Part shown: positions 190 to 19,547 of the stretch, piece after piece | How the letters are laid out: each line of letters opens with the position of its first letter | How positions within the stretch are numbered: position 1 is the first letter of the stretch | DNA from: an uncultured virus (IMG/VR IMGVR_UViG_2834966965_000001) | Taxonomy: Duplodnaviria > Heunggongvirae > Uroviricota > Caudoviricetes | Reading direction: 5' to 3' (one strand) | Virus record (IMG/VR): IMGVR_UViG_2834966965_000001 | Length of the DNA stretch: 20,000 nt | The notes under the pieces: model-generated | The model's input: the letters and a program-made list of their open reading frames with translations, nothing else | Told to the model about the DNA's origin: nothing | Database searches by the model: none | Position numbers and translations under genes: made by a program

Positions 190-193
190 TAGG

Positions 194-2499: not shown

Positions 2500-2536
2500 G
2501 AAGGAAAATAAAATAGGCGGTTGTTCCGCCTATTTT
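2500..2536. terminator. intrinsic terminator, probably bidirectional, between convergent mrr and the element's last gene
   Basis: Stem AAAATAGGCGG (2510-2520), loop TTGTT, stem CCGCCTATTTT (2526-2536). On the minus strand it is followed by TATTTTATTTT. Confidence 0.85.
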
Positions 2537-2539
2537 GGT

Positions 2540-4840
2540 TTAACTTTTAGATTTACCGCTTCCGTTAGCCAGGGCTAGGACCGCTATTCCGGCCACAGCT
2601 ACCAAGCCCCAAGAAGAACTTGCTGCTGGAGGAGGCGTAACTCCGGAGGGCGTGATTGTGATAGCCTTTTCCGCTACTTTATACCAGCCAGTTGTCGGAG
2701 GAGTAGGACTAATCGGATTAACTACAGCCCCACCTGGACAACCTTCCAAAACCGCCTTGCCGGTTAAAACCGTTTTCCCCATCACTCCCAGGAGTACCTT
2801 AATGGTATCGGTAGCGTCCCGGCCCAGGTGAATCGTGTCCACTTTGCCGCTTAAAGTGCCCAGGGTAACAGTGGTCCGTGTCCACCAGCCGTTAATTTGT
2901 TGCCAGGCATTATCATCAAAGGCCTGGATTTGAACATTTAACTCCAGCGGACTCCCGGTTTTAATTGTGGCAGGTTGCACACCTACGATCTGCCCGGTTA
3001 TTTCCCCGGATCCTGGCGTCGCCACAACAATAACGGCCCCCATCTTGACCGGAGAGATTACCTCAGGACTTGCGATCTTAGCATACACATCATAGGGACT
3101 CTTAGACGGATCTATGCCCTCACTAATGAATATAGGGATCTTGCCGGTCTGTGGACTCCAAGATGCACAAGCCGGGATATTAATATCCTGGGTAGCATTT
3201 AGGACTTCATCAAAGCCGAAAATGCCCTTAATACCGATAGCCCCATAGAGTTGTTTGGAGGTTGCCGGTCCCAGGTATTCAAAGATTGTCTCGATCCAGC
3301 AAGTATTTCCGACACTTACCGGAGAGGTGACTGTTTTAATTACCAGGTTACGGAATTGTGGATTAGTGCCCTGGACGATGATCACGTCTTGCTGGGTAGG
3401 CGAAACGATCTCCGGGAATGCCCCATCAAATTTGGCATAGCAGCTGTAAGGGCTATTTGCCGGATCAATAGCTGAACTGACATTCACATTCACGTCCACG
3501 TAATAGGTAGTCCAGTCATCGGATTTGGGTATCTGGACGCTAACCGATCCGGTAATAATCTCGTCGAAACCGGCCCATCCGGCAGATCCGATAGCTGCGT
3601 AAAGCACCTTAGACATAGCCGATCCACGGTAGTCCCAGGATACCGATATTTTACAGTTTTGCCCTACTTTTACCGGCGTGGTCCAGCTGGTAACCATCAA
3701 ATTCCGGAATTCTGGATTAGGGACCGGATTGCCTCCATTTACAACGATCACATTGGTCAGTGTAGGAGAGCTTACTCCTCCAATCTTGACATAAAGGCAA
3801 TAAGGACTATGAGTGGGATCTATGGCCGAAGTAACAGGGACCGCTATATCCATAGTTACCGAAGTCCAGGACCGGGCCTCCGGCATAAAGAAAAGCTGAT
3901 CTTTCCATTCTATCTCGTCAAACATTCCTAATAATATTTGACCGATGGAAGCGTGTAAGTTTTCCGCACAAGCCGGTCCCTGGTATTCACAAGTTACCCG
4001 GACTTGACAGGTCCCTCCCTGGTCCACCTGAGCCGTATAGCTCACTATCTTTACATTTTTCCAGGCCGAAGCTGGTATGTCCGTCCCTACCATGAGAACG
4101 TTTACCAGCGTGGGCGAGATAATGGTAGGGAATACCCCGTTAAACTTGGCATAGATCGAATATGGCGAATTAGCCGGGTTAATCGCCGTGGTAACCGGCA
4201 CATCTACCCCGACATAGTATTGCGTCCATACCTGAGTTTCCGGGATCTGGACCCATACCTCCCCAGTTAGGATCTCGTCAAAACCGCCCCATCCGGAGGA
4301 CCCTATAGCTGCATGAAGTAGCTTGGAGAGAGCCGGTCCCTGGTATTCAAACTGTACCTCTACCCGGCAGTTTTGCCCGGCCTTGACCGGGTTCGTGTAC
4401 TGATAGGCTGTGAGATTTCTAAACTCGGATTGAGGGACCGGAGGATTGCCAGGAATGGCGGATCCGTAAAAACTTGCCAGGTGTACCATTCCGTCTGGGA
4501 GTCCATATCCCCAATCCATCCAGGCTCTAAATGAGTTCCAATCCCATGACTGAGACGCGTAAGGCGTACCGAATAGGAAAAAGCTGATATAAGAGTTTTC
4601 ATTTGGCATATTAGCCAGGTCATACGCACGGTTATCGCCTCCGTCTCCTCCCCACTGGACCGTTTGATCCAGGACCTTACCATAGGGATTCCCCTGCCAA
4701 AGCTGATATGAGGTAGCAATCAAAAAAGTTTTCCAGAGAGTGCCATCATTGTTAGCCACATACCAATCAATATTCGCCTTGAGCATTTGCCCGGCCGCGA
4801 CCTGGGGAATATCTATGCTGATTAGTTGCCCGGTAATCAT
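2540..4840 (-). CDS. 766-aa beta-sandwich repeat protein with C-terminal membrane anchor (putative spike/adhesion virion protein)
   Basis: Four ~115-120-aa repeats, Pro-rich linkers, and a C-terminal hydrophobic helix (WGLVAVAGIAVLALA) followed by a basic tail. No signal peptide. The start overlaps the upstream stop (ATGA-type 4-nt overlap). Confidence 0.65.
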   Translation of the reverse strand: MITGQLISIDIPQVAAGQMLKANIDWYVANNDGTLWKTFLIATSYQLWQGNPYGKVLDQTVQWGGDGGDNRAYDLANMPNENSYISFFLFGTPYASQSWDWNSFRAWMDWGYGLPDGMVHLASFYGSAIPGNPPVPQSEFRNLTAYQYTNPVKAGQNCRVEVQFEYQGPALSKLLHAAIGSSGWGGFDEILTGEVWVQIPETQVWTQYYVGVDVPVTTAINPANSPYSIYAKFNGVFPTIISPTLVNVLMVGTDIPASAWKNVKIVSYTAQVDQGGTCQVRVTCEYQGPACAENLHASIGQILLGMFDEIEWKDQLFFMPEARSWTSVTMDIAVPVTSAIDPTHSPYCLYVKIGGVSSPTLTNVIVVNGGNPVPNPEFRNLMVTSWTTPVKVGQNCKISVSWDYRGSAMSKVLYAAIGSAGWAGFDEIITGSVSVQIPKSDDWTTYYVDVNVNVSSAIDPANSPYSCYAKFDGAFPEIVSPTQQDVIIVQGTNPQFRNLVIKTVTSPVSVGNTCWIETIFEYLGPATSKQLYGAIGIKGIFGFDEVLNATQDINIPACASWSPQTGKIPIFISEGIDPSKSPYDVYAKIASPEVISPVKMGAVIVVATPGSGEITGQIVGVQPATIKTGSPLELNVQIQAFDDNAWQQINGWWTRTTVTLGTLSGKVDTIHLGRDATDTIKVLLGVMGKTVLTGKAVLEGCPGGAVVNPISPTPPTTGWYKVAEKAITITPSGVTPPPAASSSWGLVAVAGIAVLALANGSGKSKS
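3024..4435 (-). repeat. four tandem protein-level repeats (Ig-like beta-sandwich)
   Basis: Approximate consensus FRNL...PVxxGxxC...EYxGPA...LxAAIG...FDEI...IP...W...IDPxxSPYxxYAK...SP...V, occurring four times. Repeats 1 and 3 are the most similar pair. Confidence 0.9.
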
Positions 4841-5298
4841 TTACTTGCCTCCTTATTGCTGGATCGTCCAGCCCCCAATAGAACAATACCAAACAGGACA
4901 GCGATAGCTATTGCTCCTATTCCGATAGCAGTAGCAGCTCCCGGAGAATATTGGGCAATATCATCTACCTGTTTGACCGTGAAGAAAACAAAGATAATCG
5001 CCAATACCGCCAGGACTCCCAGGATGATCGCATTCCACCAAAGCGGAGAGGCCGAAGCGACTAATTCCACCATGTAATCCGTTGTAAAGATCCCGGATTT
5101 ATCCTCATATACCCTTAACTCCAGAAGTAAGCTGCCCTGGGCCTGGAGTTCGTTTACATGGGCGTTTACCAGGTCCTCAGCCCTCCAGTTGGCCCCCATC
5201 TGATCCGGGAGATTGACCCTGAAAGTATAGACACACCTTTCCGCATGGCCGTTAAATTCCTGGTTTGCTTTAACTTCTTTGATTAATTGATAAGCCAT
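4837..5298 (-). CDS. membrane protein with two C-terminal TM helices (putative virion membrane protein)
   Basis: 153 aa. Hydrophobic stretches LWWNAIILGVLAVLAIIFVFFTV and AIGIGAIAIAVLFGIVLLGA. Confidence 0.7.
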   Translation of the reverse strand: MAYQLIKEVKANQEFNGHAERCVYTFRVNLPDQMGANWRAEDLVNAHVNELQAQGSLLLELRVYEDKSGIFTTDYMVELVASASPLWWNAIILGVLAVLAIIFVFFTVKQVDDIAQYSPGAATAIGIGAIAIAVLFGIVLLGAGRSSNKEASK

Positions 5299-5301
5299 AT
5301 A

Positions 5302-5625
5302 TCACCCCTTTTTAGGTTGATATTTTTCGAGTATGTGTAAGATCGCATTAACGTTCCCCTCGACATTAGCTAGTTTTTCGTTGATCCCTTGAAACGAGTC
5401 CCGGCATTCTGGAATGATCTCCAGATGGACTTGATGAATTTTGCAAGTAAGATCTTGAAAGTCTTTGTCATGTTTCTCCTTAAGTTCTTTAATTTTCACG
5501 TCCTGGTTGGCTAGCTTGGTATTAATGGATCCGATTGTCCGTCCCCAGGCATAAGCCCATACCAGGACATTCAAGATAATCGCGATTAAGACTCCGCTGA
5601 TTATTGCCGAAATGGATAATTCCAT
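5302..5625 (-). CDS. N-terminal TM plus coiled-coil protein (lysis-cassette- or virion-membrane-type)
   Basis: 107 aa. One N-terminal hydrophobic helix followed by a heptad-rich region. Translationally coupled to the upstream ORF (TAATG). Confidence 0.65.
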   Translation of the reverse strand: MELSISAIISGVLIAIILNVLVWAYAWGRTIGSINTKLANQDVKIKELKEKHDKDFQDLTCKIHQVHLEIIPECRDSFQGINEKLANVEGNVNAILHILEKYQPKKG

Positions 5626-5810
5626 TACTTAGTCCCTCCAGGATCCTCAGGTTTTTTACGAAAGTAGTATTGAAGCACTAAGGTCCAGGAGACGATTGTT
5701 GCTCCCAGTACTTCGCTTGGCAGCATTAGCCAGCTATTCACAATCCACAAGGCTGGGATAAGAATAATAAGAAATAAAGCTAGGCGATCATTAAAGAATT
5801 TCCATCCCAT
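5625..5810 (-). CDS. small two-TM holin-like membrane protein
   Basis: 61 aa with two hydrophobic helices and a charged tail (YYFRKKPEDPGGTK). SD GGAGG. Confidence 0.6.
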   Translation of the reverse strand: MGWKFFNDRLALFLIILIPALWIVNSWLMLPSEVLGATIVSWTLVLQYYFRKKPEDPGGTK

Positions 5811-5819
5811 AGGTCCCTC

Positions 5820-6566
5820 CTAGGCCAGATAAACTAACGATATTGTGTACTGTAACCGGATTTGACCTGCGTTTGGAATAAGGATCTCCGGACTCAAAAC
5901 ATCTCGACTAAAGAGAAAATTACTCATGCTGTAGGCTGTACCAGTTTGCATCTTGACGATATAGCCAATTTCTCTTACCGTGATGTCTCCTCCGGAATTA
6001 TTATTCATAAATCTGACCATACTATCGGTTAGAGTTTTAGTGCCAGCGTCATAACTGAGAACAGGGGCCTCTTGAGCAATCATTGAGAGCTGTCCACTCC
6101 CTAGTCCGTTAGCGATTGGAGTTTGTAGGTTGTAATGCTCAAAACTTTCAACTGCCCCATTGGTCCCTACAACTATGCCATGACCGGCATCGTTAGCAGC
6201 CGCCCTTGATCCTCTCCCAGCACTTTCGTTTTCCCTCGTTTCAACATTGTAGTAATCAATATAAGTTACCCAAGCACCATAAGAACCGGTGTATCTGGTA
6301 ATATTTCCGTCAGTTTTTTTATAACTGAGAAGTCCGGATCCATAAGTGGCGTCTGTGGGGTTTGAACTTCCAAGCTGGCAAAAGATCAGGTTATAAGAGT
6401 TCCGTGTCCAGCTATGACTTCGCTGTTTACGGTGAGTCACGATCTTGCCGTTTTGGGTTACTCGAATATCCAAGTGTCCACAAAGGATCGGTATTCCAAG
6501 TTTCTTCCCCAGAGCCTCAAGCCGTTGGTATTTAGCTTCGGTTTCGGGCGTATCTAAAATTAGCAT
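5820..6566 (-). CDS. beta-rich putative virion structural protein, paralog B
   Basis: 248 aa. Shares KQRSHSWTRNxYN, GIVxG, LQTPI, MNNNSGGxITVREI and RDVLxPEIxxPNAGQ with the adjacent ORF. Confidence 0.65.
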   Translation of the reverse strand: MLILDTPETEAKYQRLEALGKKLGIPILCGHLDIRVTQNGKIVTHRKQRSHSWTRNSYNLIFCQLGSSNPTDATYGSGLLSYKKTDGNITRYTGSYGAWVTYIDYYNVETRENESAGRGSRAAANDAGHGIVVGTNGAVESFEHYNLQTPIANGLGSGQLSMIAQEAPVLSYDAGTKTLTDSMVRFMNNNSGGDITVREIGYIVKMQTGTAYSMSNFLFSRDVLSPEILIPNAGQIRLQYTISLVYLA

Positions 6567-6578
6567 TTTATTACTCCT

Positions 6579-7316
6579 TTATACTGGATAGGTCAGCGCG
6601 ATCGTGTAAGTTACTTTTAACTGTCCAGCGTTAGGTAGGGCAATCTCGGGGGCAAGAACGTCTCTTCCAACCATCAGCGTAGGAAATTGACCATAAATCA
6701 TACCTCTAGTGTATTGAGCAATTTCCCTTACCGTGATAATGCCTCCGGAGTTGTTGTTCATGTAACGGGCAATAGCCACACTCCAGGTTTTGGTTCCGGC
6801 ATCCCAGGACTTTACATTAGTCAAATGAGCCGAGTAGTTGAGTTTTCCAGATGAGGCCCCTTCGGTAATGGGCGTCTGGAGAGCAAATCCGTTGAAGTCC
6901 TCGACAGCGTTTCCGGATCCTGCGACAATTCCAGCAGCTAGGGATCCAGTATCGGCCCGGTAGCTACTGCCAAGACCTTCGGAGTCCCCAGGGGCGAAGT
7001 TGCTAATTCCGCTTACAATGTGTCCAGCGTAATTATTACCGTAAATAGTTCCGTTGGTGTACTTCATGGTCAGGACTCCACCCTCGAAAGTGGCCCCTGA
7101 GTAGTTTTTGGCAGTTAATTGAGTGAACAAGCCATTATAAGCGTTCCGTGTCCAGCTATGACTCCGTTGCTTATGATGATGGATAGTCTTTCCCTTCAAG
7201 GTGACTTCCATTTCCAGGAAACACTCCGGGACCGGGATACCAAGCTCAAGTCCCAATTTAGCCATTTCCCGGTATTCTCTTTCGGATTTCTTTGGTTCTG
7301 TATATTTACAGGTCAT
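6579..7316 (-). CDS. beta-rich putative virion structural protein, paralog A
   Basis: 245 aa. Tandem paralog of 5820-6566. SD AGGAGG. Confidence 0.65.
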   Translation of the reverse strand: MTCKYTEPKKSEREYREMAKLGLELGIPVPECFLEMEVTLKGKTIHHHKQRSHSWTRNAYNGLFTQLTAKNYSGATFEGGVLTMKYTNGTIYGNNYAGHIVSGISNFAPGDSEGLGSSYRADTGSLAAGIVAGSGNAVEDFNGFALQTPITEGASSGKLNYSAHLTNVKSWDAGTKTWSVAIARYMNNNSGGIITVREIAQYTRGMIYGQFPTLMVGRDVLAPEIALPNAGQLKVTYTIALTYPV

Positions 7317-7327
7317 TATTGCCTCCT

Positions 7328-8545
7328 TTAGTACGTCCCGATCCAGACCCTGCCTAAGATTGGCTGAGTGGTTTGGCTAGTGTATGCCGTAACTTCGGCT
7401 TTTACCCAATAGAGGTTATAGGCCAGGATTGTTGTTATGGCCCAATCCCCAGGTCTGGTGAAGTGGATAGTATGTCTGCCTGGACGTTTCCAGCTATTTG
7501 ATTTGTCCCCATCGCTACTTAAAGTTAGAGGTAGCCAAGAGACACCATTGTAATATTTCCAGGTGATTGTGTATGTTCCGACTCCGGCTTGGTTTACCCA
7601 CACGTTCACGTAGTCAAACGGAGAACTATTACCAACGTAAAGACCATCCCCAACAGCCGTTGGATTTGGAGTGGCCGGAACATCAAGAGAGTTATTTCCA
7701 TACTCCTCAAACAACAATTCTCTAGTGGCGTCAGCGGTCCATGATCCTCCGGAGTTGGTAGAACTACACTTTTGCCCTCCAGCATATCCGGCAGCCGAAG
7801 ATCTCCAGTTAAGGGTCCCGGCGGCCGTTCTCACGACAATAGCGTAAACGGTTCCAGCAGTTAAAGCGGTTCCAGCCCCTAGAGAGATGTCGTAAACTCT
7901 TTCGTCATTTGAGCTACTAAGTTGGCCTCCGTCCAGGGTTCCACTACAAAGATCGCCTCCAGTGGGCAGACCGCCAGATGTAGCCCGGATTGAGACGGTA
8001 ATTGCCCCAACACTAGATCCATAAAGGCAAAGCCTCACTCCCCGGATAGTGTGATTTGTGCCTGGAGTAAAGGTCATGGCTTTCCAGGTAGTATTAGTAA
8101 TACTTTCCTGGTTGTCGTCATTTTGTAGCCAGGACTGATCTACTACAGGGTCGCTATTGGCCTGGGTTGTTACTTCGGTATCTGTGGGAGGCGCATCATC
8201 ATGGCTGACAACTCTTTCCGAGTCGCTGATGGCAGCTTGAATGCAAACCTGGGCAATAGTGGGAACAGGACACGTCAGGCTAGGCGTAGCGGTTTCCGCA
8301 CCGCTAAAGGTAGCAATAGCCTGGGCCTGGATGGTAGGAACCGGAATATTCAGACTTGGGCGAGCTTGAGCTTGCCACTGGACCATTGTGCCCTCAATCC
8401 CAAATATAATCGTATGCCACTTGATATTAGGGGCAGCCAGGTCAGCATCTACTCCCACCAGGCCGGAGGGGTTGCCTCGATGGAGTCCCTTTTTGTAATC
8501 TGAGCTATCGGGAGATAAGAACCTACGAGCTACATAAAATCCCAT
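7328..8545 (-). CDS. multi-domain putative spike/turret or receptor-binding protein
   Basis: 405 aa, rich in T/G/S. It has a short internal repeat (PSLNIPVPTI / PSLTCPVPTI) and two beta-sandwich-like regions resembling carbohydrate-binding modules (AMTFTPG...VRLCL...ITVSIR; DYVNVWV...TWKYYNG..W..L). Confidence 0.55.
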   Translation of the reverse strand: MGFYVARRFLSPDSSDYKKGLHRGNPSGLVGVDADLAAPNIKWHTIIFGIEGTMVQWQAQARPSLNIPVPTIQAQAIATFSGAETATPSLTCPVPTIAQVCIQAAISDSERVVSHDDAPPTDTEVTTQANSDPVVDQSWLQNDDNQESITNTTWKAMTFTPGTNHTIRGVRLCLYGSSVGAITVSIRATSGGLPTGGDLCSGTLDGGQLSSSNDERVYDISLGAGTALTAGTVYAIVVRTAAGTLNWRSSAAGYAGGQKCSSTNSGGSWTADATRELLFEEYGNNSLDVPATPNPTAVGDGLYVGNSSPFDYVNVWVNQAGVGTYTITWKYYNGVSWLPLTLSSDGDKSNSWKRPGRHTIHFTRPGDWAITTILAYNLYWVKAEVTAYTSQTTQPILGRVWIGTY

Positions 8546-8949
8546 TATTTCTCCTCCAGCGTGTACTCATAAGGGATCGCCTTGCCGTTATCCAGGGCGT
8601 TATCGCTTTGCGCTTCAACACGGAAGGCCTCATAGATCCCGAGAGGGCTGTTAATCACCGGAATTGCCTGGGGATCAGCCCCGACAATATAGTCATCGTC
8701 CAGGATACATTTCTCTGTTCCGTTGACTTGCTGATAAAGTCGGATGCTGATGTTTGCAGCAGCAGTTAACGCCGAAAGGTCTACCAGGAGAGAGTCAATC
8801 ATCTTTCCATCGTCATTTTGTCCGATAGTTACGAGATCGGCCCCGGCCGTGCCACTGGTCGCCACTCCGGATTGCCAGTTAGCGGTTACGGATCCCTTAT
8901 AGCGTTCAATCTCCGAAGAATATGCCTTAATATTCAGCTTATTCACCAT
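8545..8949 (-). CDS. small all-beta structural protein (single jelly-roll penton candidate)
   Basis: 134 aa with alternating hydrophobic beta-strand patterns. Second gene after the MCP, abutting both neighbours. Confidence 0.5.
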   Translation of the reverse strand: MVNKLNIKAYSSEIERYKGSVTANWQSGVATSGTAGADLVTIGQNDDGKMIDSLLVDLSALTAAANISIRLYQQVNGTEKCILDDDYIVGADPQAIPVINSPLGIYEAFRVEAQSDNALDNGKAIPYEYTLEEK

Positions 8950-11641: not shown

Positions 11642-11689
11642 AGCTGGTTTGATCAGTCTTGATCAGAGACTAATACTTACCATGAGTTT

Positions 11690-11733
11690 ACTGTAAGATT
11701 GATACGCTAAAATTGTCAAAACTTAGCCTCAAA
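11690..11733 (-). promoter_or_regulatory. promoter of the structural operon with conserved upstream motif
   Basis: Minus strand TTTGAGGCTAAGTT-TTGACA, 18 nt, TACAGT. The 19-mer at 11715-11733 matches 19441-19459 at 18 of 19 positions. Confidence 0.75.
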
Positions 11734-11738
11734 TAATC

Positions 11739-12271: not shown

Positions 12272-15200
12272 TCAGCTTGCGATAGTGGCTTGCGGCATGG
12301 CTTCTTTGACTTCATGGAGAACGTCGGACATCAGGGTCCGACCATTTTCAGCGTCACATGAGGGATTCTTGCCATGTTCCAAAGTATAAGCCCTTTGTCC
12401 CACGTTGGAATTCAATCTTCTAACCTGCATATCTTCAGCCGGGTTGGAGTTTGTCCGGCCAATTTCCAGTTTGTACGGATCGTGAGTTACACAATAGGCT
12501 TCAATATCGGCCTTACGTTGCCCGGATGATTTTACAGAATAGAAGCGCAGTCCGTCCGGATCGGCCATTTCCCCGGTCCTGGTAGCCGTCCAGCGTTCCG
12601 GTTTGGAGCTATCGGCCTTTCGATGGAGGACTTCTCCTTTGGCTTCCAGGTATTCCAAGGCCTCTTTTAACCGGCTATCATTCACGGACTTGACCTTGCA
12701 ATACTGTTTAATCTGGTCCATGGAGAGCCAATCACCGGCATAAACCATCATTTCCGGGAGTAGCTTTTCATTGGCAAACTCCTCCATGTCCATGTTGTCC
12801 CATTTACTTTCCAGCTCAGCCTCGGAGTCGAGTAATCGGCCCTGGGAAGGACTAATTTTGGCATTATTCCATTCACGGTTAGGGCCTCCAACCTCGTACT
12901 TATCCAGGAAATCCCGGTATTTCGGTCCTAACTGTTTAGTCGTGGAATCATTGAGAAAATCCTGCCACTGCCGGTCATTCATCCATGCTGGTCTAAACCT
13001 CCCGGCATACATTGCCGAAAGATGATAGATATGGCCATCCAGGTCCGGAGTTTCATCGTCCGGATGTTTCAGGTCATATCGTCCGGAATATGTTTGTCCG
13101 TCCTCCCAGTTAACCTTGAAATCACATTTATCATAGCCTCCGTGCATGGGGGCCGTTTTCCCCCACTTATAAAGAAGATAAAAGGCTTTTTGCCACACAT
13201 CAGGCCCGGTAAGAGTGACGGGCTTTCCGCATTCACTTGCCGGTCCCTCGGCTCTTTCAATGACTATTGTTTTGGCCTTAATTTTTGCCATATTATCCCC
13301 CATCTTTACTATTTGCCCTCGGCTTGATTTGGCGTTAAACATCGCTGCCTGGACGCCCTGGGGAAGCCGGAATGCCGGTTCGGGTTTGGATACGTCTTGC
13401 TTATTCCAGGTTAGAGTTTGCGGTTCGTCGGCTGGCAGCATGACCTCAAAATTAATTGAGGAGTAGGGATCCGCGCTATGTACCTCTTTGGCCCAGGGGA
13501 TCGCTTTGCCTATTTTGACTACGTTCATCCATTCCGGGCCTTCATACAATTTCGGCTTAATGCCGTAAATCGTGACTATATAGGCCCCGACGTTCATCCC
13601 GGCTTCGCAAATTTTAACCTTTCCGATAGAAATCCCATAAGCTAGAAACTCCCGGAGGGGTTTCCAGTTCATTACTTTAGTTATCTGATCTGGAGGGAGA
13701 TTGCAGAAATCAACCTTCCGGCTTAACCATTTGGAGTCTATCATCCCGGAGTCAAACAGATTGCCTAGAAATTGAAAACCGTCTCCTGATAGATTTAGGA
13801 CTTTAGCCGTACCTGCGCCTTCAAGTTCGGCAAAATCGGCGTCTGGATCCTCTTCCTCTTTGACGTACTGGACGGGATCTGACAGGAAAGGCTTATGAAT
13901 GAAGGAATTAAGTAACTCCGTAGAGATTGAGTTTTCAAAGGCCTCTTGTTGAGATCTGCCGTCTATAGCCTGGGCAATCACCATTTCCTTATAGGCCAAT
14001 ATTTCCATCATCCTCTCGTCAATGGTCCCTTTTGCCAGGACATTCACGATTTCAACTGGCTTCTTTTGCCCTATTCTATGTGCCCTGTCCTCGGCCTGGA
14101 GCTTGCCTCCCGGCGTCCAGGGAAGATCCATGAAAGCCACACGGTTAGCAGAGGTTAGCGTAATGCCTACCCCGGCCGCTCCTACGGTCCCGAAAAAATA
14201 GCATTGGTCCGGATCGCGCTGGAATTTATCAACGAGAGCTTGCCGGTCCTCTTTGGCGAGACTTCCAGAGTAGATAGGAGAACTAACTTGCTTCATTTGT
14301 TTAAGTCTTTCGAGAGGTTCCAGGAAATTACTGAATACCAGGACCTTACTCCCGGTTTCATGGCAGGGTTTCAGCCAATCGCTAACAGCATCCACCTTGC
14401 CCTGTGCTGCCAGTTGCCGGAGAGCATTCATCCGGGTAATCAATTCGGCCTTAGATGCTCTTCGGGCTGCCTCAGTCCCTTTTGTTTTGACCAGGTAGCG
14501 GATAAAGTCCAGTTCAGCCTCTTTATACTCTTTGACATTGGATATGGGGACAAACATCGGAGTCTGTGTCTTAGGCGGCAACTGTTTCAAAACGTCCTTT
14601 TTCAGTCTCCGCAACATGATCGATTGCAGTGTCTGGTGCAAGTGGCCGAGATTCTTGGCTCCGGTATATATTCTCCGGCCTTTAACCACCTTGCTTTCGG
14701 TATAGGTCTGGAGAAATTCTGGGAATTGGCCTCGCCTTTTGAAGCCCAGGAATACCAGCAAAGCAAAAAGCTCAATCGGCCGGTTAAGGATGGGAGTCCC
14801 TGTCACGGCTACACGGTTCGGGATTGGCTTATCAGCCGGTTGCTTTTCCTTTGGTTCCACTAACTCCAGGATCGCCCTGGTCCGGTGCGTGTCCATGTTC
14901 TTTACTAAGTGTGCCTCATCTATAATCACGGCCTGAAATCCGGCTTTTCGCAAGGACGTGAGATATTTCGCTATCATGCCATAAGTAACTAAGGTCCAAT
15001 CCGGCAGAGGATCCGGTAGCCGGTTTTGTCCGTCCAGTATGACAACTTTATCTTTTTGTCTCCACATTTCGGAAATCTCACGCTTCCAGTTGAAGATCAG
15101 CGAAGCCGGGACAACTACCAGGACTGGCCGATGATCGGCCCCCCAATGGATCGCTTGCGGAGTCTTGCCGAGGCCCATTTCATCGGCCAGCAAAGCACTC

Positions 15201-17884
15201 GATCTATTTTTTAGCCAGGCTACGCCCTCCTTTTGAAAATCATAAAGTTCATATTCCACTTTCGGTTTAGCCGTTGTCGGAGGCGTGACAGTACAAGTTG
15301 GGCAATAGCCGGATGAAGGCAACGGCCCCTCCGGGAAAAAGGAATAACCGAATTTTTTCAGGGCTTCTCTTTCGGTTTTGGTCATGGTCCGGAGTCCCAG
15401 GATAGCGTCCTCCAGTTGGGCAGCTCGTTTGATGGCCGACTCAAATAATTCCGCTTTGGTTACCTTCCCCAGACCCGGCATCAGTGAAACCTGATTTGGA
15501 GGCGTGGAGTCTATTACCATTTGGGCATAGGTCCCCAGGATGGCAGCGATCTTTTTAGCGGACCGGGAATTTTCGTCCATGACTACCAGTATTCTCTCTT
15601 GAAATTTATTGAGTTCTCTTTCCAGCATGGACATTTGAGCTAAATATTTAGCTACGGTATAACCGTCCTGTTTCTTAATGGCAACCAGTACCGCGATCAC
15701 TTTCGCCAGGTCCTCGCCTATGGCATACTCTTTTTCCCGTTCCCCTTTTAGTGCCAGGGTTTCTGCCCGGCTTAAAAGGCCCAGGGTCCGGAGAAGTCCG
15801 TTAAAGACGGTCCGGACGGAGAGATCAGTTGACTCAAAAAATCTTTCCGCTAGTTTCTGCCCTACTTCACCCTTAAAGGTGGCCATGAAGAGGGCTAAGG
15901 TAGCCCTCCGGATACCGTCTTGACTCAAAATGCCTTTAGCGTCCACAATCCGGGCCTGTTCATTAGCCGCTAACTTCTGTACAAACTGCCGGACAAAGTT
16001 GGTATTTCGGGCCGATCTCAAGGCGTCCTCGATGTTTTCCCCCTCCAGGATCTCCAGGGAACTCAGCATTTCCGGAGTAATCTTATTGGCGTCTGACCGG
16101 CCGGTTTCAATGGCCGAGCTTTGGATAGTGGTGGAAGCATTGGCCTCCTCAACAAACTGTTTCCGGTCCACCTGTGTAAGTCTCACTCTTACCAGGATCG
16201 GAGCCTCGAAGGACTCCTCTTTTTTGCCGAAACTTAAACCAAACTCCGGAAGTTTATTTACCATTGTCTCCAGATACTTTGCCCACACGCTAGGATGATT
16301 TTTATAGGCCAGGATCATAGCCATTACCCGGCCGTTGCCGGACTCCACTACCATATCCGGCCCTACTATCGGAGTTCCCCGGTCTATGCCGTGAAAATCG
16401 GTAAGCAGGGATCCAGGATCAAGATTTGCGGCAATTCTTTCCACCTGGAGACGAGTTGCGGCCCGGTCCCGGTTGCGCGGCTGTAACTCCTGGGGATAGC
16501 CGGGAGTAGGTGTAAAATCAATCGGATTATGAGAGGCCTTGATCTTCAAGGCGTCCACAATCTTATGCTCAAACTCATACCTGGTCGTGGTCGAGGTCCC
16601 TACGGCCCAGGTCTTATTACTCACTGCCTGATCCGGTTTTTTGCGGATACTCAGATCCGGCCGGGCAGCAATTTGACTGATTAGCTTTCCGAGTTCGTTA
16701 ATGCTGGCAGTGGAGGCTTCGACTTTATCAATCCCCGCCACTTTGAAATTGCAGACTTTCCCCTCATTCTTGCCGCATTTGCCGGTCACTTTGATATAAG
16801 ACTCGGCTGTTGGATCCGCTAACCGGAGGCCCTTCTGCATTAACCGGCCTTGTCCGTGAATACCCACCGGCAATCTTCGATTAACTTCCGGTTGTCTCTC
16901 CGGTCCCAGTATCTCCGGGACCGTGACTTGTTTGGGTTTCGGATTAACTATCTCCAAAGCGGGCCTTTGGTCATTAGGGATCGGGAGAGCATACCCGGCT
17001 TGAAAGGAATAATCCGCCCTGTGCCCGGCAACCACAAACTCCGGAACCGCAATCTCCAGGTTTTCCAGGGAGTCTTTTAACTTCTTATGGAGTCTCCGAT
17101 CCGCTTCCGAAGGACTAGGATCCCCGGCCGGATGATTATGGACTACAATAACATTCGTGGCATTAGTCTTTAAGGCCATTCTTGCAACTTCTAGGACGGA
17201 GACAAGGGCCGTATCAGCTGTCCCAATAGCAAATTCCACCAGGCCGACCAGTCTTAGCCGGGTGTCCAGTAATATCAGCATTACCCATTCCCGGTCCTGT
17301 TTTCGCATCAGTTTTATTAAGTCTTGGACTTTTTCAAAGCTATTAATTTGAGGGGCATTCTCAATTGTCCAGTTAGGGGACCGGACTAAGTTAAGCTCAA
17401 CCTGATAGTTTTTATACTCTGGAGGGATAATTCCCTCATTCGGAGTAACGTGCCCCTGGTTAATTATCATTGGAGTCGGGAAATGTTCTTTGTAAGTGAT
17501 CCCGGAGTCTCTCATTTTCGCCAGGTGACACGCCCCGACAAGTAAAGTCTCAAAATATTTCCGCCACTTGCTCGCCCAGGATACCGGGCAAATGTCCTCT
17601 TGTTTCGGTTTTTTACCGCATAGCAGACTCTCCTCGGCTCTCCGGTAGGCTTTGGCTTCTTCTGCCAGTTGGACGAGCTTATCAAACTCTTTGTCTGAAC
17701 TCTGGGAATCTCTTGCCAGGATAATCATAGTCTCCGCGCAATAATCCTCGGACCTTTTCAGATGTTTCCGGGCACAGTTTTCCCCGGCTGAATGGCAAGG
17801 GCAATCCGGATCGGCCAGATGATCTTCTAATAGTCCCAGGGTCCCTTCCAGTTTCTCATATTGCCATTTTACGATGGGCTGCAT
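12272..17884 (-). CDS. 1870-aa polyvalent protein: Cys/His N-domain, RadC-like JAB, ddrB-like ParB, SWI2/SNF2 ATPase, LPD25-like, wHTH
   Basis: JAB at ~17360-16995 (DRE...HNHPAGDPSPSEAD). ddrB-like ParB at ~16580-16140 (YPQELQPRNR...GTPIV...VESGNGR). SNF2 at ~15250-13960 (LLADEMGLGKT, IIDEAH, TGTPILN, GVGITL, QAEDRAHRIGQ). LPD25-like at ~13275-13030 (GGYDKCDF...YSGRYDL). wHTH-like at ~12790-12580. Confidence 0.85.
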   Translation of the reverse strand: MQPIVKWQYEKLEGTLGLLEDHLADPDCPCHSAGENCARKHLKRSEDYCAETMIILARDSQSSDKEFDKLVQLAEEAKAYRRAEESLLCGKKPKQEDICPVSWASKWRKYFETLLVGACHLAKMRDSGITYKEHFPTPMIINQGHVTPNEGIIPPEYKNYQVELNLVRSPNWTIENAPQINSFEKVQDLIKLMRKQDREWVMLILLDTRLRLVGLVEFAIGTADTALVSVLEVARMALKTNATNVIVVHNHPAGDPSPSEADRRLHKKLKDSLENLEIAVPEFVVAGHRADYSFQAGYALPIPNDQRPALEIVNPKPKQVTVPEILGPERQPEVNRRLPVGIHGQGRLMQKGLRLADPTAESYIKVTGKCGKNEGKVCNFKVAGIDKVEASTASINELGKLISQIAARPDLSIRKKPDQAVSNKTWAVGTSTTTRYEFEHKIVDALKIKASHNPIDFTPTPGYPQELQPRNRDRAATRLQVERIAANLDPGSLLTDFHGIDRGTPIVGPDMVVESGNGRVMAMILAYKNHPSVWAKYLETMVNKLPEFGLSFGKKEESFEAPILVRVRLTQVDRKQFVEEANASTTIQSSAIETGRSDANKITPEMLSSLEILEGENIEDALRSARNTNFVRQFVQKLAANEQARIVDAKGILSQDGIRRATLALFMATFKGEVGQKLAERFFESTDLSVRTVFNGLLRTLGLLSRAETLALKGEREKEYAIGEDLAKVIAVLVAIKKQDGYTVAKYLAQMSMLERELNKFQERILVVMDENSRSAKKIAAILGTYAQMVIDSTPPNQVSLMPGLGKVTKAELFESAIKRAAQLEDAILGLRTMTKTEREALKKFGYSFFPEGPLPSSGYCPTCTVTPPTTAKPKVEYELYDFQKEGVAWLKNRSSALLADEMGLGKTPQAIHWGADHRPVLVVVPASLIFNWKREISEMWRQKDKVVILDGQNRLPDPLPDWTLVTYGMIAKYLTSLRKAGFQAVIIDEAHLVKNMDTHRTRAILELVEPKEKQPADKPIPNRVAVTGTPILNRPIELFALLVFLGFKRRGQFPEFLQTYTESKVVKGRRIYTGAKNLGHLHQTLQSIMLRRLKKDVLKQLPPKTQTPMFVPISNVKEYKEAELDFIRYLVKTKGTEAARRASKAELITRMNALRQLAAQGKVDAVSDWLKPCHETGSKVLVFSNFLEPLERLKQMKQVSSPIYSGSLAKEDRQALVDKFQRDPDQCYFFGTVGAAGVGITLTSANRVAFMDLPWTPGGKLQAEDRAHRIGQKKPVEIVNVLAKGTIDERMMEILAYKEMVIAQAIDGRSQQEAFENSISTELLNSFIHKPFLSDPVQYVKEEEDPDADFAELEGAGTAKVLNLSGDGFQFLGNLFDSGMIDSKWLSRKVDFCNLPPDQITKVMNWKPLREFLAYGISIGKVKICEAGMNVGAYIVTIYGIKPKLYEGPEWMNVVKIGKAIPWAKEVHSADPYSSINFEVMLPADEPQTLTWNKQDVSKPEPAFRLPQGVQAAMFNAKSSRGQIVKMGDNMAKIKAKTIVIERAEGPASECGKPVTLTGPDVWQKAFYLLYKWGKTAPMHGGYDKCDFKVNWEDGQTYSGRYDLKHPDDETPDLDGHIYHLSAMYAGRFRPAWMNDRQWQDFLNDSTTKQLGPKYRDFLDKYEVGGPNREWNNAKISPSQGRLLDSEAELESKWDNMDMEEFANEKLLPEMMVYAGDWLSMDQIKQYCKVKSVNDSRLKEALEYLEAKGEVLHRKADSSKPERWTATRTGEMADPDGLRFYSVKSSGQRKADIEAYCVTHDPYKLEIGRTNSNPAEDMQVRRLNSNVGQRAYTLEHGKNPSCDAENGRTLMSDVLHEVKEAMPQATIAS

Positions 17885-17894
17885 ACGCTGCTCC

Positions 17895-18716
17895 TTATAA
17901 TTTAGCTACTATCGGATCAACGGAAGGCGATTTTTTTGGTCTGTTCAAATACCCGGTTGATGGGCCGGTAAAGGCTTTTGGGTCGCTGACTACGACCGTC
18001 CTTCCCCTGGTTCCGATTTTAACGCCCTCGATCAAGGCTTTTTGAGCTACATTAAACATAGTTTCGGGCTGATTAGCCGGTTGACCGCCTCCGAAAATGG
18101 CCTGTAATCTCTGGTACCGGCCCATTTCCCTTTCCATTTTGTCCAAGAAGTCTTCCGGTTGGGCCTGGGTTCCCCCAAACATTTTTTCCAGGAACGGGAG
18201 GTATTTGTCCATCGGACCGGTCCCTCCGCTACTCCCGGCCGGACTCAGGTTTTTTAATTGCTCGGTAAGGTTCTGATTGATAGCCTGTATGATTGAGTCC
18301 TTATTCTGCGCGAATATTTGCTCAATCATCCGGGCATTTCCCTCCCGGATCTGTTTAAGCTGTTCGGCTACAGCCATCTTGAACTCGTTCAGGGTTGCCA
18401 GCATATCCGCATTCAAGGCGTCCTTGACCTGTTTGATGATCCGGGCTTCCTCAACGGCCCCGCTGGTCGGGATCCGGGCTACAACCTGATTAACAACATC
18501 CTCAATATTAACTTTGGGGACCGGAATACGGGCCGCCAGCAATTCAACAATTTCCTGGAGAGTGGGGATGTTGGCCTTCACAGCTGACTCGATCCGGCCC
18601 TGGATCTCCGGCATAATCGCTTTTGCGATTTGGTCCTGGGCTTCCTGGATGATAACATCAAAGTTTAAACCAAAACTCCGGGCTTTATTGCGGAGATCTT
18701 CGTAGTCCTTATTCAT
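17895..18716 (-). CDS. alpha-helical/coiled-coil protein of unknown function
   Basis: 273 aa, predominantly helical, with a short internal repeat (IPTLQEIVELLAARIP / VNIEDVVNQVVARIP). Overlaps the upstream stop. SD GAGGGGG. Confidence 0.7.
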   Translation of the reverse strand: MNKDYEDLRNKARSFGLNFDVIIQEAQDQIAKAIMPEIQGRIESAVKANIPTLQEIVELLAARIPVPKVNIEDVVNQVVARIPTSGAVEEARIIKQVKDALNADMLATLNEFKMAVAEQLKQIREGNARMIEQIFAQNKDSIIQAINQNLTEQLKNLSPAGSSGGTGPMDKYLPFLEKMFGGTQAQPEDFLDKMEREMGRYQRLQAIFGGGQPANQPETMFNVAQKALIEGVKIGTRGRTVVVSDPKAFTGPSTGYLNRPKKSPSVDPIVAKL

Positions 18717-19227
18717 TCATTCCCCCCTCAAGTTTCACATAGCAATTTAGGGTTTTGCTGTATGCCCATCCGGTCATATCGGCCGGTTTTTCCTGGGAAA
18801 TGATTACATCTGGAGAAGGATCCCTGAGTTCTCCAGCCTCCGGTTGTTTTTCTGTACTGATTTCTTCCAGATAACCTTTCCGGACGCCCAGAGCATAGTA
18901 AGAATCTCCGTCCAAATTATTCAGCCACTCCAGGATTAGATTATCCCGGAATTCCGGGCTTTCGAGTAAGGCAATTTGAGACTCCAATTCGGAGATTTTG
19001 GTATCTCTTAATTCCAGTTCGCTAGTCGAGATATTTCCAGAGGTTTCGAGGGATACCGGCATGTCGCTCTTTTCTTCGGGAGGCTGCTCTTCTAAGCTGG
19101 AAAGCCGGTTGTCCAGGACTTTCACCGTCTCCGGTAGGTCCTCCAGCTTCGCTATTTGGTTCTCCATCCTGGAGAGAATTTTGGTAATCCTCGGATCCGC
19201 CTGTGTCTCGGTTGATTTCGTTCCCAT
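18709..19227 (-). CDS. acidic coiled-coil protein of unknown function
   Basis: 172 aa, E/D-rich, with two heptad segments. SD GGAGG lies 6 nt upstream of the ATG. Confidence 0.7.
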   Translation of the reverse strand: MGTKSTETQADPRITKILSRMENQIAKLEDLPETVKVLDNRLSSLEEQPPEEKSDMPVSLETSGNISTSELELRDTKISELESQIALLESPEFRDNLILEWLNNLDGDSYYALGVRKGYLEEISTEKQPEAGELRDPSPDVIISQEKPADMTGWAYSKTLNCYVKLEGGMNE

Positions 19228-19396
19228 TATCGTCCTCCAAAATTACTATCGAATCCCTTGCAATTAGCCGGGAATGATCCCAGGTTTGATCGTCTTGATT
19301 GTGCAGGTGTTTGGTAAGTTCTTTGCGAGGCGCAATTTTCGGATCTGGTGAATACACTTTAGCCTTGCAAATTGGACAGATCGCACATTTTCGCAT
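19022..19396 (-). CDS. Zn-finger-like protein, first gene of operon 1
   Basis: CAICPIC...ELTKHLHNQ (C2H2-like). SD AGGGGG, directly after the promoter. The low-complexity C-terminal half overlaps the next gene by 206 nt. Confidence 0.6.
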   Translation of the reverse strand: MRKCAICPICKAKVYSPDPKIAPRKELTKHLHNQDDQTWDHSRLIARDSIVILEDDNGNEINRDTGGSEDYQNSLQDGEPNSEAGGPTGDGESPGQPAFQLRRAASRRKERHAGIPRNLWKYLD

Positions 19397-19415
19397 GGTT
19401 TCCCCCTATGAGGTC

Positions 19416-19459
19416 ACAATAAAGCCGGTAGTCTCAAACAGTCAAAAGTTAGCCTCAAA
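19416..19459 (-). promoter_or_regulatory. promoter of operon 1 with conserved upstream motif
   Basis: Minus strand TTTGAGGCTAACTT-TTGACT, 18 nt, TATTGT. Same architecture as 11690-11733. Confidence 0.75.
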
Positions 19460-19547
19460 AAATACGAGTATTGCTTGAGGGAAGCGGTTGATTTAGCTAA
19501 CAAATGGGAGTAGACTGAGCAAAACTTAATACCTAACTGGGAGGAAA

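Follow-up and report, generated by a model that had tools for sequence, protein, structure and literature searches.

Positions 2540–19463 of the stretch of DNA analysed here (20,000 nucleotides, hereafter the window) are likely to represent the early and morphogenesis core of a virus integrated in a bacterial chromosome. This virus would belong to an uncultured lineage whose members have a double jelly-roll (DJR) major capsid protein (MCP) but no packaging ATPase, and its genome would be condensed, not pumped. The preliminary description of this DNA as a capsid element with no recognisable packaging ATPase, replicase, integrase or att sites was confirmed for the window by profile searches, Walker-motif scans, and a repeat search.

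Between 2540 and 19396, the window contains a single minus-strand run of 17 consecutive, closely spaced open reading frames (ORFs). As described earlier, these are intact and coupled, with overlapping or short junctions: a 4-nt overlap at 4837–4840, 1-nt overlaps at 5625 and at 8545, an 8-nt overlap at 18709–18716, and abutting ORFs at 8949/8950. The GC content of the block is about 49% (0.44–0.52 by position) versus about 36% in the flanks (0.36–0.37 in 1–2500 and 0.41 in 19001–20000). A promoter-like site and a hairpin corresponding to the right-hand promoter and left-hand terminator of the preliminary description could also be located. The total of promoter-like and terminator sites in the window is the same as in shuffled sequence, so that the support for these signals is their position and a 56-nt repeat of 71% identity, common to the early and late promoter regions (11682–11737 and 19408–19463). 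The features of the block, from its right-hand to its left-hand edge, are as follows.

19445–19416 within 19408..19463, minus strand: early promoter region, promoter-like TTGACT-18-TATTGT (sequence and 56-nt repeat)
19022–19396, minus strand: 124-aa ORF, CxxCxxC motif near the N-terminus, no family in Pfam, PHROGs, or NCBIfam
18709–19227, minus strand: 172-aa early protein with homologues, no family match
17895–18716, minus strand: 273-aa early protein, no enzyme family in Pfam, PHROGs, or NCBIfam; homologues in L010–L012
12272–17884, minus strand: 1870-aa polyvalent protein (profile searches)
11969–12241, minus strand: 90-aa JAB/MPN-type metallopeptidase (profile match to Prok-JAB, DUF4329)
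11739–11966, minus strand: 75-aa zinc-ribbon protein (weak zinc-ribbon matches)
11719–11690 within 11682..11737, minus strand: late promoter region, promoter-like TTGACA-18-TACAGT (sequence and 56-nt repeat)
11430–11537, minus strand: 35-aa basic micro-protein with two Cys, preceded by an AGGAGG ribosome-binding site
11316–11411, minus strand: 31-aa basic micro-protein of the type A family, with invariant C, T, G, C, G, V columns
10704–11285, minus strand: 193-aa Gly/Ala-rich 'cons1-like' protein (position before the MCP gene, homologues)
9631–10668, minus strand: 345-aa DJR MCP (AF2 fold and Foldseek)
8950–9522, minus strand: 190-aa candidate vertex protein, with homologues
8545–8949, minus strand: 134-aa candidate penton or minor capsid protein, with homologues in L008, L032, and L057
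7328–8545, minus strand: 405-aa structural-module protein, weak match to phrog_5986 (unknown function)
5820–7316, minus strand: two tandem, beta-rich paralogues of 245 and 248 aa, 42% identical (sequence)
4837–5810, minus strand: three small proteins with hydrophobic segments, of 61 aa (one segment), 107 aa (one, N-terminal), and 153 aa (two)
2540–4840, minus strand: 766-aa candidate spike or receptor-binding protein (repeats and anchor)
2509–2537: bidirectional hairpin terminator at the left edge of the GC-rich block; the convergent Mrr gene uses the same hairpin

The 345-aa ORF is, on the evidence of its modelled fold, a DJR MCP of the PRD1/STIV type. The AF2 model (pLDDT 84.1, pTM 0.86) found its best structural matches in the Tectiliviricetes, namely the STIV MCP 2bbd_A (Foldseek E 4.9e-16, TM 0.70), PRD1 P3 (E 3.9e-15), and PM2 P2 (E 9.8e-12). 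The vertical double jelly-roll MCP of the Bamfordvirae is represented by this ORF, as judged by AF2 and Foldseek. A gap of 35 nt separates the MCP gene from the cons1-like gene upstream. Homologues of the latter were detected in 68 of 88 sources, directly before the MCP gene wherever inspected, and the hydrophobicity of the 193-aa protein is below the transmembrane threshold. The candidate vertex protein consists of a helical N-terminus, a Gly-rich linker, and a C-terminal domain; its family occurs in 26 loci, on the downstream side of the MCP. Folding in search of a single jelly-roll penton covered the 245-aa paralogue, whose poor model (pLDDT 59) gave no significant structural match (Foldseek E 0.018 and VIA Z 5.3 at best). 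The 766-aa protein comprises about five repeats of ~118 aa (DNA spacing 354 nt) and a C-terminal hydrophobic anchor at 739–757.

Among the early genes, the final 206 nt of the 124-aa ORF overlap the next ORF in a different frame. Profile searches assigned the 273-, 172-, and 193-aa ORFs, singled out in the preliminary description, to no known family. Homologues of the 172-aa protein (28–29% identity) are encoded by the first gene of the early operon in L011 and L012, and the Atlas model of the 273-aa protein is of low confidence (pLDDT 0.52). The polyvalent protein contains RadC-JAB (181–295), ddrB-ParB (433–568; E 2.1e-27), and SNF2 helicase (883–1272) domains; its C-terminal ~550 aa had no match in Atlas. 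The ddrB-ParB domain is present in all six Pfam-annotated polyvalent ORFs (window, L001, L006, L007, L100/L101, and L021), and the 90-aa JAB gene adjoins the polyvalent gene in 30 loci.

DJR-MCP viruses of the Bamfordvirae encode a packaging ATPase (FtsK-HerA superfamily) 'in most cases' (PMC10848233); this enzyme was found neither in the window nor in L021, a complete relative. Pfam, PHROGs, and NCBIfam searches of 21 window ORFs detected no ATPase of the FtsK/HerA/A32 type and no polymerase, Rep, primase, or recombinase. The strict Walker A motif matched once in the six frames of the window, in a non-coding frame containing a stop. A relaxed GK[ST] scan of 20 ORFs gave five matches. Consistent with the profiles and with the earlier reading of SNF2 as the only P-loop, the SNF2 match (residue 906 of the 1870-aa ORF) alone lies inside an ATPase domain. 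Pfam revealed no FtsK/HerA-like ATPase in relatives (53, 59, 130, 122, 28, and 19 ORFs), and such an enzyme is missing from L021 and all longer relative loci scanned. Walker A motifs of the relatives belong only to IstB/DnaC-like, AAA_25, and kinase-like proteins of peripheral modules and to host genes; an A32/FtsK ATPase just outside the window, which would contradict the preliminary description, has no counterpart in any relative scanned. Since Pfam coverage of small PRD1-type ATPases is poor, this absence rests largely on the Walker-motif scans. Judging from the sequences compared, it is a trait of the entire lineage and no artefact of the window.

Highly basic, Cys-containing micro-proteins of 20–50 aa are encoded just upstream of the capsid genes in 46 of 52 loci, versus 64 of 1362 control windows; a qualifying micro-ORF is absent in the other six loci. 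Among 22 aligned type A sequences, six columns are invariant. The motifs are almost restricted to the pre-capsid position, with 28 (A), 17 (B), and 12 (C) occurrences in 802,515 bases. This set of micro-proteins upstream of capsid genes is a new finding. By composition and position, they may be DNA-condensing core proteins. Small, very basic proteins condense dsDNA inside jelly-roll capsids in adenovirus (core proteins VII, V, and Mu) and in the polyomavirus minichromosome; adenovirus nonetheless uses the packaging ATPase IVa2. The analogy with VII, V, and Mu is functional, with no sequence relation, and condensation by the window proteins is presumptive. Protamine-like micro-proteins may explain how DNA enters a capsid without a packaging motor.

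The MCP family comprises 65 close homologues and 278 clusters at 50% identity (E <= 1e-3). An MCP homologue was found in 120 metagenome stretches, 80 of which were kept, and in seven genome loci, five of them from Dehalococcoidia, Dehalogenimonas or Chloroflexota. The lineage thus appears to be large and uncultured, with chromosomal relatives mostly in the Dehalococcoidia/Chloroflexota. Flanks differ from locus to locus; the conserved gene order is polyvalent ddrB-ParB protein, JAB peptidase, micro-proteins, cons1-like protein, and MCP. Locus L021 is a complete, att-bounded provirus of 11.1 kb. It carries a tyrosine integrase and a perfect 65-nt direct repeat (2973–3037 and 14081–14145) overlapping tRNA-SeC; an ATPase and a replicase were not found among its 19 ORFs (Pfam, PHROGs), and no ORF has a P-loop. 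Neither the window nor L021 contains portal, terminase or T4SS genes (Pfam, PHROGs). In relatives, the element periphery carries recombinases of the tyrosine or serine type together with RepO/DnaD/DnaC-like genes.

These data are best accommodated by motor-free assembly, one of the three readings initially offered. It is kept as the best packaging explanation because L021 and the longer loci are free of the ATPase and conserved, tiny basic proteins head the capsid operon. Transcription from the early promoter (about 19430) would yield two proteins of no known family and the giant polyvalent protein. The latter would be cut by the JAB peptidases and carried in the particle, like DdrB of phage P1, where it would dampen restriction by the host upon entry. 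Genes served by the late promoter (about 11700) would be those for two protamine-like micro-proteins, the cons1-like protein, the MCP, the proteins of vertex and spike, and four hydrophobic-segment proteins, which would fit an internal lipid membrane. Instead of being pumped into a preformed shell, the genome would be condensed by the basic micro-proteins, perhaps with the ParB domain as the nucleating element, and the condensed DNA would have membrane and capsid assembled around it. Integration and, where present, replication genes would be peripheral; in the window copy they would lie outside the window, on the far side of the R-M cargo, or have been lost. Sequencing runs contained only minor portions of the stretch, and a particle, transcript, or excision product was not observed.

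The proposal that missing modules lie outside the window is supported in part: analogy with the periphery of relatives favours it for integration and replication genes only, the packaging ATPase being absent from the relatives scanned as well. The lack of integrase and replication genes probably reflects the window edge or this particular copy. It is conceivable, if doubtful, that the block is a defective remnant, incapable of autonomous excision or replication, whose integrase, repressor, and replication genes were lost or replaced by low-GC R-M insertions at both ends. The window flank indeed consists of low-GC Mrr/R-M defence genes, and the low-GC genes on both sides (Mrr, control protein, 316-aa ORF, and 150-aa ORF) are absent from all relative loci compared. 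In the closest long relatives, L011 and L012 (MCP 65%), a RepO/DnaD and DnaC-like module lies directly upstream of the early genes, at which position the window has an unrelated ORF. No tRNA, no Rfam match, and no integrase (Pfam, PHROGs) were detected in the window, nor any att-like direct or inverted repeat of >9 nt between its ends. However, serine recombinases leave no long repeats, and the G187 element likewise has none of >14 nt. Two Dehalococcoidia chromosomal relatives share the layout of structural followed by low-GC defence genes, with recombinase and replication genes further out. Moreover, all 17 ORFs are intact, and the structural genes are shown by their dN/dS values, the comparison proposed earlier, to be under purifying selection (0.08–0.15 versus the close relative L008 in 8 of 8 genes compared).

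An NTPase motor supplied from elsewhere is unlikely. Candidates would be a gene located beyond the window, an FtsK/HerA-like translocase of the host, the polyvalent SNF2 domain or the peripheral AAA+/AAA_25 proteins. SNF2 enzymes translocate on dsDNA, and SNF2 is the only ATPase of the window; IstB-like or AAA_25 ATPases are present in L011, L023, L104, and L106. Yet SNF2 occurs in only three of the six annotated polyvalent proteins, being missing from L006, L007, and L021, the IstB-like genes adjoin RepO/DnaD-type initiators, as in lambdoid replication modules, and the complete L021 provirus is devoid of P-loop ORFs altogether. A domesticated capsid (GTA-like, or for protein or DNA delivery) or a helper-dependent satellite, the remaining initial reading, is very improbable: the missing replicase, integrase, and packaging enzyme, the strong purifying selection, and the adjoining defence genes would suit it, but the MCP is patchily distributed (9 of the 401 genomes sampled from the class, with two copies each in G002 and G004) and 29 to 91% identical across relatives, the differing flanks reveal no vertical inheritance at a fixed locus as expected of a GTA, relatives possess integrases, att sites, and repressors as well as replication modules of their own, and a complete set of genes for capsid, vertex, and membrane would be unusual in a satellite.

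STIV and PRD1/PM2, the best structural matches of the MCP, possess a late operon with several small hydrophobic-segment proteins, as expected for an internal membrane, and the window late operon resembles them in this respect. Their FtsK/HerA-type packaging ATPases are B204, P9, and P10; in addition, a protein-primed polymerase is encoded by PRD1 and an RCR Rep by PM2. No such enzyme was found in the window. The STIV and PRD1/PM2 groups encode the packaging ATPase (Table 1, PMC8328091).

The window virus, known here from its genes alone, is probably of the same kind as the 'Odin group', DJR-MCP viruses with no detectable packaging ATPase (Yutin et al., 2018, Virol J 15:67; PMC5894146), and may belong to it. 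The likeness is one of gene content and description, the MCPs being compared by description and three short motifs. According to the available part of that source, shared traits are a DJR MCP closest to STIV and PM2, an undetected packaging ATPase, a small non-enzymatic conserved protein whose gene immediately precedes that of the MCP, a nuclease domain of the ParB type, integrases that occur sporadically, and members in Chloroflexi, proviruses included. A PD-(D/E)XK nuclease is a further feature of the Odin group; in the window, the right-flank ORF 19548–20000 shows a D...ExK-like motif by eye, with no profile match (Pfam, PHROGs, NCBIfam) and no homologue in the relative loci. Its genomes are 7–11 kb, versus 17 kb for the possibly incomplete window block; L021 (11.1 kb) fits this range. 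In the window, unlike in the Odin group, ParB is one domain of the 1870-aa polyvalent protein, beside RadC and SNF2. The Odin description, as available, mentions neither the micro-proteins nor the JAB peptidase or defence cargo of the window lineage, and the MCP has 345 aa versus 395 aa in the published Odin representative. None of the 215 proteins of this analysis matched the three motifs from the published Odin MCP, and the supplement accessions available include none of this lineage's contigs. Flavobacterium phage FLiP also combines a DJR capsid with the lack of a packaging ATPase (PMC5894146), but its genome is small, circular ssDNA, whereas the window element, of 17 kb or more, is integrated as dsDNA and lacks a Rep.

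The giant protein with ddrB-ParB, RadC-JAB, and SNF2 resembles the polyvalent proteins of Iyer et al. (2017; PMC5512222). With P1 DdrB-DarB-type systems it shares a processing peptidase and predicted delivery with DNA; P1 DdrB is processed and packaged. Phage polyvalent proteins are tied there to portal-terminase (tailed) phages and T4SS elements, in contrast to the DJR-capsid setting of the window, and 'jelly', 'PRD1', and 'tectivir' do not occur in the available text of that paper. The Sphaerolipovirus-like provirus of Dehalococcoides sp. CBDB1 (Makarova et al., 2014; PMC4158269) is likewise an integrated element of Dehalococcoidia with a jelly-roll capsid and a serine integrase. It represents a different lineage: its capsid protein is a VP16-like single jelly-roll, and it encodes a packaging ATPase.

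The block of interest occupies positions 19396 to 2540 on the minus strand and consists of 17 unbroken ORFs with overlapping or very short junctions, which agrees with the preliminary description of these ORFs as intact and translationally coupled. The GC content is 0.44–0.52 in the block, 0.36–0.37 at positions 1–2500, and 0.41 at the right end of the window. A 56-nt repeat (11682–11737 and 19408–19463) corresponds to two similar promoter-like regions, which split the block into an early part (19396–11739) and a late part (11537–2540):

19445–19416, minus strand: promoter-like hexamers (early), within the 56-nt repeat region 19408–19463
11719–11690, minus strand: promoter-like hexamers (late), within the 56-nt repeat region 11682–11737

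A bidirectional hairpin (2509–2537) forms the boundary of the block against the convergent mrr gene. Positions 11580–11642, approximately 50–100 nt downstream of the late promoter and ahead of the first late ORF, contain a 19-nt inverted repeat (loop of 25 nt) and, after it on the coding strand, a T-rich run. This structure is absent from the terminator-scan list and could be an attenuator or an anti-termination target. In sequencing run X3, one low-depth contig joined position 19396 to 11711 with 39 other letters in between; this most likely reflects the likeness of the two promoter regions in a related element rather than a rearrangement.

The major capsid protein (MCP) is encoded by a 345-aa ORF (9631–10668, minus strand) with 65 metagenome homologues. 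The AlphaFold2 model, for which 33 homologues were aligned, was obtained with pLDDT 84.1 and pTM 0.86. A Foldseek search with this model retrieved the MCP of STIV (E 4.9e-16, TM 0.70), P3 of PRD1 (E 3.9e-15), Vp54 of PBCV-1, and P2 of PM2. The predicted structure thus establishes a double jelly-roll (DJR) capsid fold for this ORF. PRD1, PM2, and STIV possess an internal membrane, and the hydrophobic segments present in four late proteins (61 aa, 107 aa, 153 aa, and the C-terminus of 766 aa) are compatible with such a membrane. The fold of the 245-aa protein, one of two tandem paralogues (5820–7316), was poorly modelled and had no significant structural match; a penton was not identified among the proteins folded. 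In comparison with the close relative L008 (protein identity 76–92%), dN/dS values, whose measurement the preliminary description had proposed, were 0.08–0.15 in all eight structural genes analysed, and these genes are therefore under selection.

The largest gene of the block (12272–17884, minus strand) codes for a 1870-aa protein in which a RadC-type JAB domain is combined with a ddrB-like ParB domain and an SNF2 helicase. It is a 'polyvalent protein' in the sense defined by Iyer et al. (2017; PMC5512222). This gene is followed by those for a 90-aa JAB peptidase and a 75-aa zinc-ribbon protein. The remaining 13 ORFs of the block, including an overlapping 124-aa ORF and the 273-, 172-, and 193-aa ORFs singled out in the preliminary description for profile searches, had no usefully significant family match in Pfam, PHROGs, or NCBIfam. 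An Atlas search with the 273-aa protein gave a best feature score of 0.82 with TM values of at most 0.35 (pLDDT of its own model, 0.52), and the C-terminal 546 aa of the polyvalent protein had no usable Atlas match.

Several features of individual ORFs deserve mention. In the 766-aa ORF (2540–4840), a unit of ~118 aa is present about five times (DNA repeat spacing 354–360 nt); the C-terminal end, made up of a Pro/Ser-rich linker, then a hydrophobic segment and a short basic tail, resembles a membrane or cell-surface anchor. The 124-aa ORF with a Cys motif (19022–19396) overlaps the 172-aa ORF (18709–19227) by 206 nt in a different frame. In the related locus L003, one 171-aa protein unites a zinc-ribbon with a similar coiled-coil region, and loci L011 and L012 carry a homologue of the 172-aa ORF without the zinc-ribbon. 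Gene overlap, a frameshift, or decay of a fusion may account for the pair. A small variable spot within the structural operon was found at 5302–5625, where the window has an extra gene for the 107-aa membrane protein and a different small ORF; the corresponding region of L008 (4710–4943) has only a 70-aa ORF.

The survey of the window for packaging, replication, and integration functions was negative, as had been reported from the initial inspection. Searches against Pfam, PHROGs, and NCBIfam revealed no FtsK/HerA/A32 ATPase, polymerase, Rep, primase, or recombinase; no tRNA or Rfam family was present in the window, and the two block edges had no repeat in common, direct or inverted, that exceeded 9 nt. 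The single match of a strict Walker A scan of six frames fell in a stop-containing, non-coding frame. With the relaxed GK[ST] pattern, the ORFs gave five matches, among which the SNF2 motif was the sole one inside an ATPase domain; the preliminary description had named SNF2 as the only P-loop. SNF2 was rejected as a packaging motor because it occurs in only three of the six annotated polyvalent proteins.

The lack of a packaging ATPase characterizes the lineage as a whole. Pfam analysis of the longer relative loci (53, 59, 130, 122, 28, and 19 ORFs) detected no FtsK/HerA-type ATPase, and Walker A scans of the relatives found P-loops in four kinds of genes only: IstB/DnaC-like proteins (L011, L023, and L104), an AAA_25 helicase (L106), a nucleotide kinase-like protein together with one unassigned ORF (L066), and host genes. 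The decisive case is locus L021, which contains an att-bounded and complete relative. A perfect 65-nt direct repeat (2973–3037 and 14081–14145), overlapping the 3' end of a tRNA-SeC gene (2940–3034), bounds an 11.1-kb provirus with a tyrosine integrase (13033–13974, minus strand). The provirus encodes a 666-aa polyvalent protein (PBECR3, ddrB-ParB, and JAB), an HTH repressor, an RHH protein, a zinc-ribbon protein, the MCP, a homologue of the cons1-like 193-aa Gly/Ala-rich protein (10704–11285, minus strand, in the window), and small membrane proteins, but no ATPase and no recognizable replicase. This element (L021, 2973–14145) is the smallest fully delimited family member among the loci examined.

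The preliminary description had also considered that the missing modules might lie outside the window. This explanation is not supported for the ATPase, which none of the longer loci scanned encodes, and gains support by analogy for integration and replication genes, which are peripheral and variable in the relatives. Tyrosine integrases were identified in L021, L023, L057 (a fragment), and L062, and a resolvase in L007. L011 carries Phage_rep_O, IstB-like, and DUF5131 genes as a divergent operon immediately upstream of the early genes; L012 encodes a DnaD-like protein and L028 a replisome organiser. Past the structural genes, two chromosomal elements have low-GC defence genes first and only afterwards a recombinase and replication module. 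In genome G001 (L003 and L104) these are GmrSD, SIR2, methyltransferases, and ResIII, then a resolvase, IstB-like, DnaD-like, and DUF5131 genes. In genome G187 (L102 and L106) they are PLD-SNF2, an Eco57I/MmeI-type (type IIG) restriction-modification (R-M) system, and PIN-DUF433, then a resolvase, AAA_25, and DUF5131, with a large serine recombinase next, adjoining host radA. No att repeat longer than 14 nt was found for the G187 element, as expected for serine recombinases.

The window displays the beginning of the same layout, its structural genes being followed by low-GC genes for the type IV restriction enzyme Mrr (PADLOC E 2.7e-88) and an R-M control protein (E 4.1e-23). Since this start matches G001 and G187, the window probably cuts the element, with integration and replication genes located beyond it. 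Less probably, the element is a remnant that has lost these genes, a reading suggested by the lack of any counterpart of the window's flank genes in the loci examined. A 316-aa ORF in the left flank and an open-ended 150-aa ORF in the right flank matched no family. Low-GC defence genes thus directly follow the last structural gene in three chromosomal elements (G001, G187, and window positions 1–2500), among them PIN-DUF433 as a toxin-antitoxin pair, and this position may be a cargo hot spot.

The family is sizeable. A scan of species-representative genomes with the MCP alignment gave seven loci, five in records titled Dehalococcoidia, Dehalogenimonas, or Chloroflexota and two on short contigs of MAGs labelled Alpha- and Deltaproteobacteria. 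The same alignment gave 120 metagenome stretches, 80 of which were kept, and an MCP profile search of 1.84 billion representatives returned 278 clusters (50% identity) at E <= 1e-3. The MCP is present in 9 of 401 sampled genomes of the class of G001, with two copies each in G002 and G004. All-versus-all comparison of ORFs from 88 sources recovered the MCP in 88, the Gly/Ala-rich protein, always immediately upstream of the MCP, in 68, the polyvalent/JAB pair in 39, and a 190-aa family in 26; these counts are lower bounds, because many loci are short contigs. The block had no megablast match among 50,697 phage records, a genome-contig scan with the single MCP sequence was likewise negative, and three matches in an IMG/VR pattern scan with the MCP alignment included no relatives. 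The whole-window DNA gave only short weak matches to the 401 genomes, with no close relative. Comparison with empty sites, suggested in the preliminary description, yielded none in these genomes. Parts of the window occurred in 19 sequencing runs (best share 0.15), none of them listed as RNA; the four assembled gave scattered contigs of 150–750 nt, in which no excision or empty-site joint was found. Two MCP homologues in NCBI records (P0009 and P0010) lie on contigs of 20,295 and 20,327 nt, and the contigs of some others measure 20.6–25 kb; these may be complete free genomes of ~20 kb.

Yutin et al. (2018; PMC5894146) described the Odin group of DJR viruses with genomes of 7–11 kb, an MCP most similar to those of STIV and PM2, no packaging ATPase, a conserved small protein ahead of the MCP gene, ParB and PD-(D/E)XK nucleases, sporadic integrases, and some Chloroflexi members. 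The account of the group by Woo et al. (2021; PMC8328091) again gives no ATPase and places all members except one in bacteria. The family studied here matches the published description feature by feature and, judged by description rather than by MCP sequence, is probably part of the Odin group. The observation of a capsid element with no recognizable packaging ATPase is correct, but the main puzzle it poses is already published for that group. The element in the window is a larger variant of the Odin kind with a polyvalent protein and, probably, cargo. The supplement text of PMC5894146 contains no contig names of the present family, although its genome maps may show some. Literature searches on jelly-roll capsids in dehalococcoid or Chloroflexi hosts yielded one different provirus and no description of the family; the sphaerolipovirus-like provirus of Dehalococcoides CBDB1 differs in having an ATPase (PMC4158269).

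The 2018 description of the Odin group raised the question of how ATPase-less DJR viruses fill the capsid. The interval between the late promoter and the gene for the Gly/Ala-rich protein contains two tiny ORFs with good ribosome-binding sites:

11537–11430, minus strand: micro-protein of 35 aa, ~40% Lys+Arg, with cysteines
11411–11316, minus strand: micro-protein of 31 aa, ~40% Lys+Arg, with cysteines

Of the 52 loci whose sequence extends 300 nt or more beyond the start of the Gly/Ala-rich protein gene on its upstream side, 46 had one to four basic, Cys-containing micro-ORFs of this kind (20–70 aa), compared with 64 of 1362 control windows taken from these loci. Three motif types were distinguished (A in 20 loci, B in 16, and C in 12; any type in 35 of 52). 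Their six-frame occurrences in 802,515 bases (28, 17, and 12, respectively) were nearly all at the micro-ORF position. In the alignment of 22 type A sequences, the C, T, G, C, G, and V columns are invariant, and type A ORFs usually end 2–16 nt ahead of the start codon of the Gly/Ala-rich protein. Composition and position suggest that the micro-proteins are abundant virion core proteins neutralizing and condensing DNA. No mention of them was found in the passages of Yutin et al. (2018) consulted.

Four things are demonstrated, namely the fold of the capsid protein, a conserved order of genes, selection on the genes, and a complete relative that has no motor. We tentatively propose, at somewhat less than even odds, that this lineage packages 10–30-kb dsDNA without any NTPase motor: protamine-like micro-proteins of 20–50 aa would condense the core, perhaps nucleated by ddrB-ParB of a virion-borne polyvalent protein, and the membrane and DJR shell would assemble around it. 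On entry, the polyvalent protein, carried in the particle and cut by JAB peptidases, would counter restriction, a step with a precedent in DdrB of P1 (PMC5512222). In packaging, the ParB domain would possibly act as a site-specific nucleator for condensation by the micro-proteins, and membrane and capsid would then form around the condensed genome without an NTPase. Replication would depend on host enzymes or, where present, on accessory RepO/DnaD/DnaC modules, and integration on whatever recombinase a given element has. If true, this would be a prokaryotic counterpart of the nucleoprotein cores of adenoviruses and polyomaviruses and a second, motor-free way to fill a PRD1-type capsid. The conserved micro-proteins are a concrete, testable packaging candidate, and the 11.1-kb L021 provirus, as a minimal complete genome, makes packaging experimentally tractable. 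Giant 'polyvalent' anti-defence proteins, previously of tailed phages and conjugative elements, are now also found in jelly-roll viruses. Dehalococcoidia, which this family infects, are organohalide-respiring bacteria used in bioremediation, and such viruses and their defence-gene cargo could affect strain stability.

Some loci show further variation. A distant member in genome G012 (L103, 9236–10890) has a 379-aa MCP (profile E 1e-22), retains the order Gly-rich protein–MCP, and carries a lysozyme-like ORF recognized by eye; it may link the family to more divergent DJR groups. Additional genes for mobility or modification occur in or beside the element at L030 (2242–3760), L034 (5019–5453), and L066 (85–2413), namely IS200/IS605 TnpA and TnpB, a LAGLIDADG endonuclease, and, as a pair suggestive of DNA hypermodification, a Tet/JBP dioxygenase and a P-loop nucleotide kinase.
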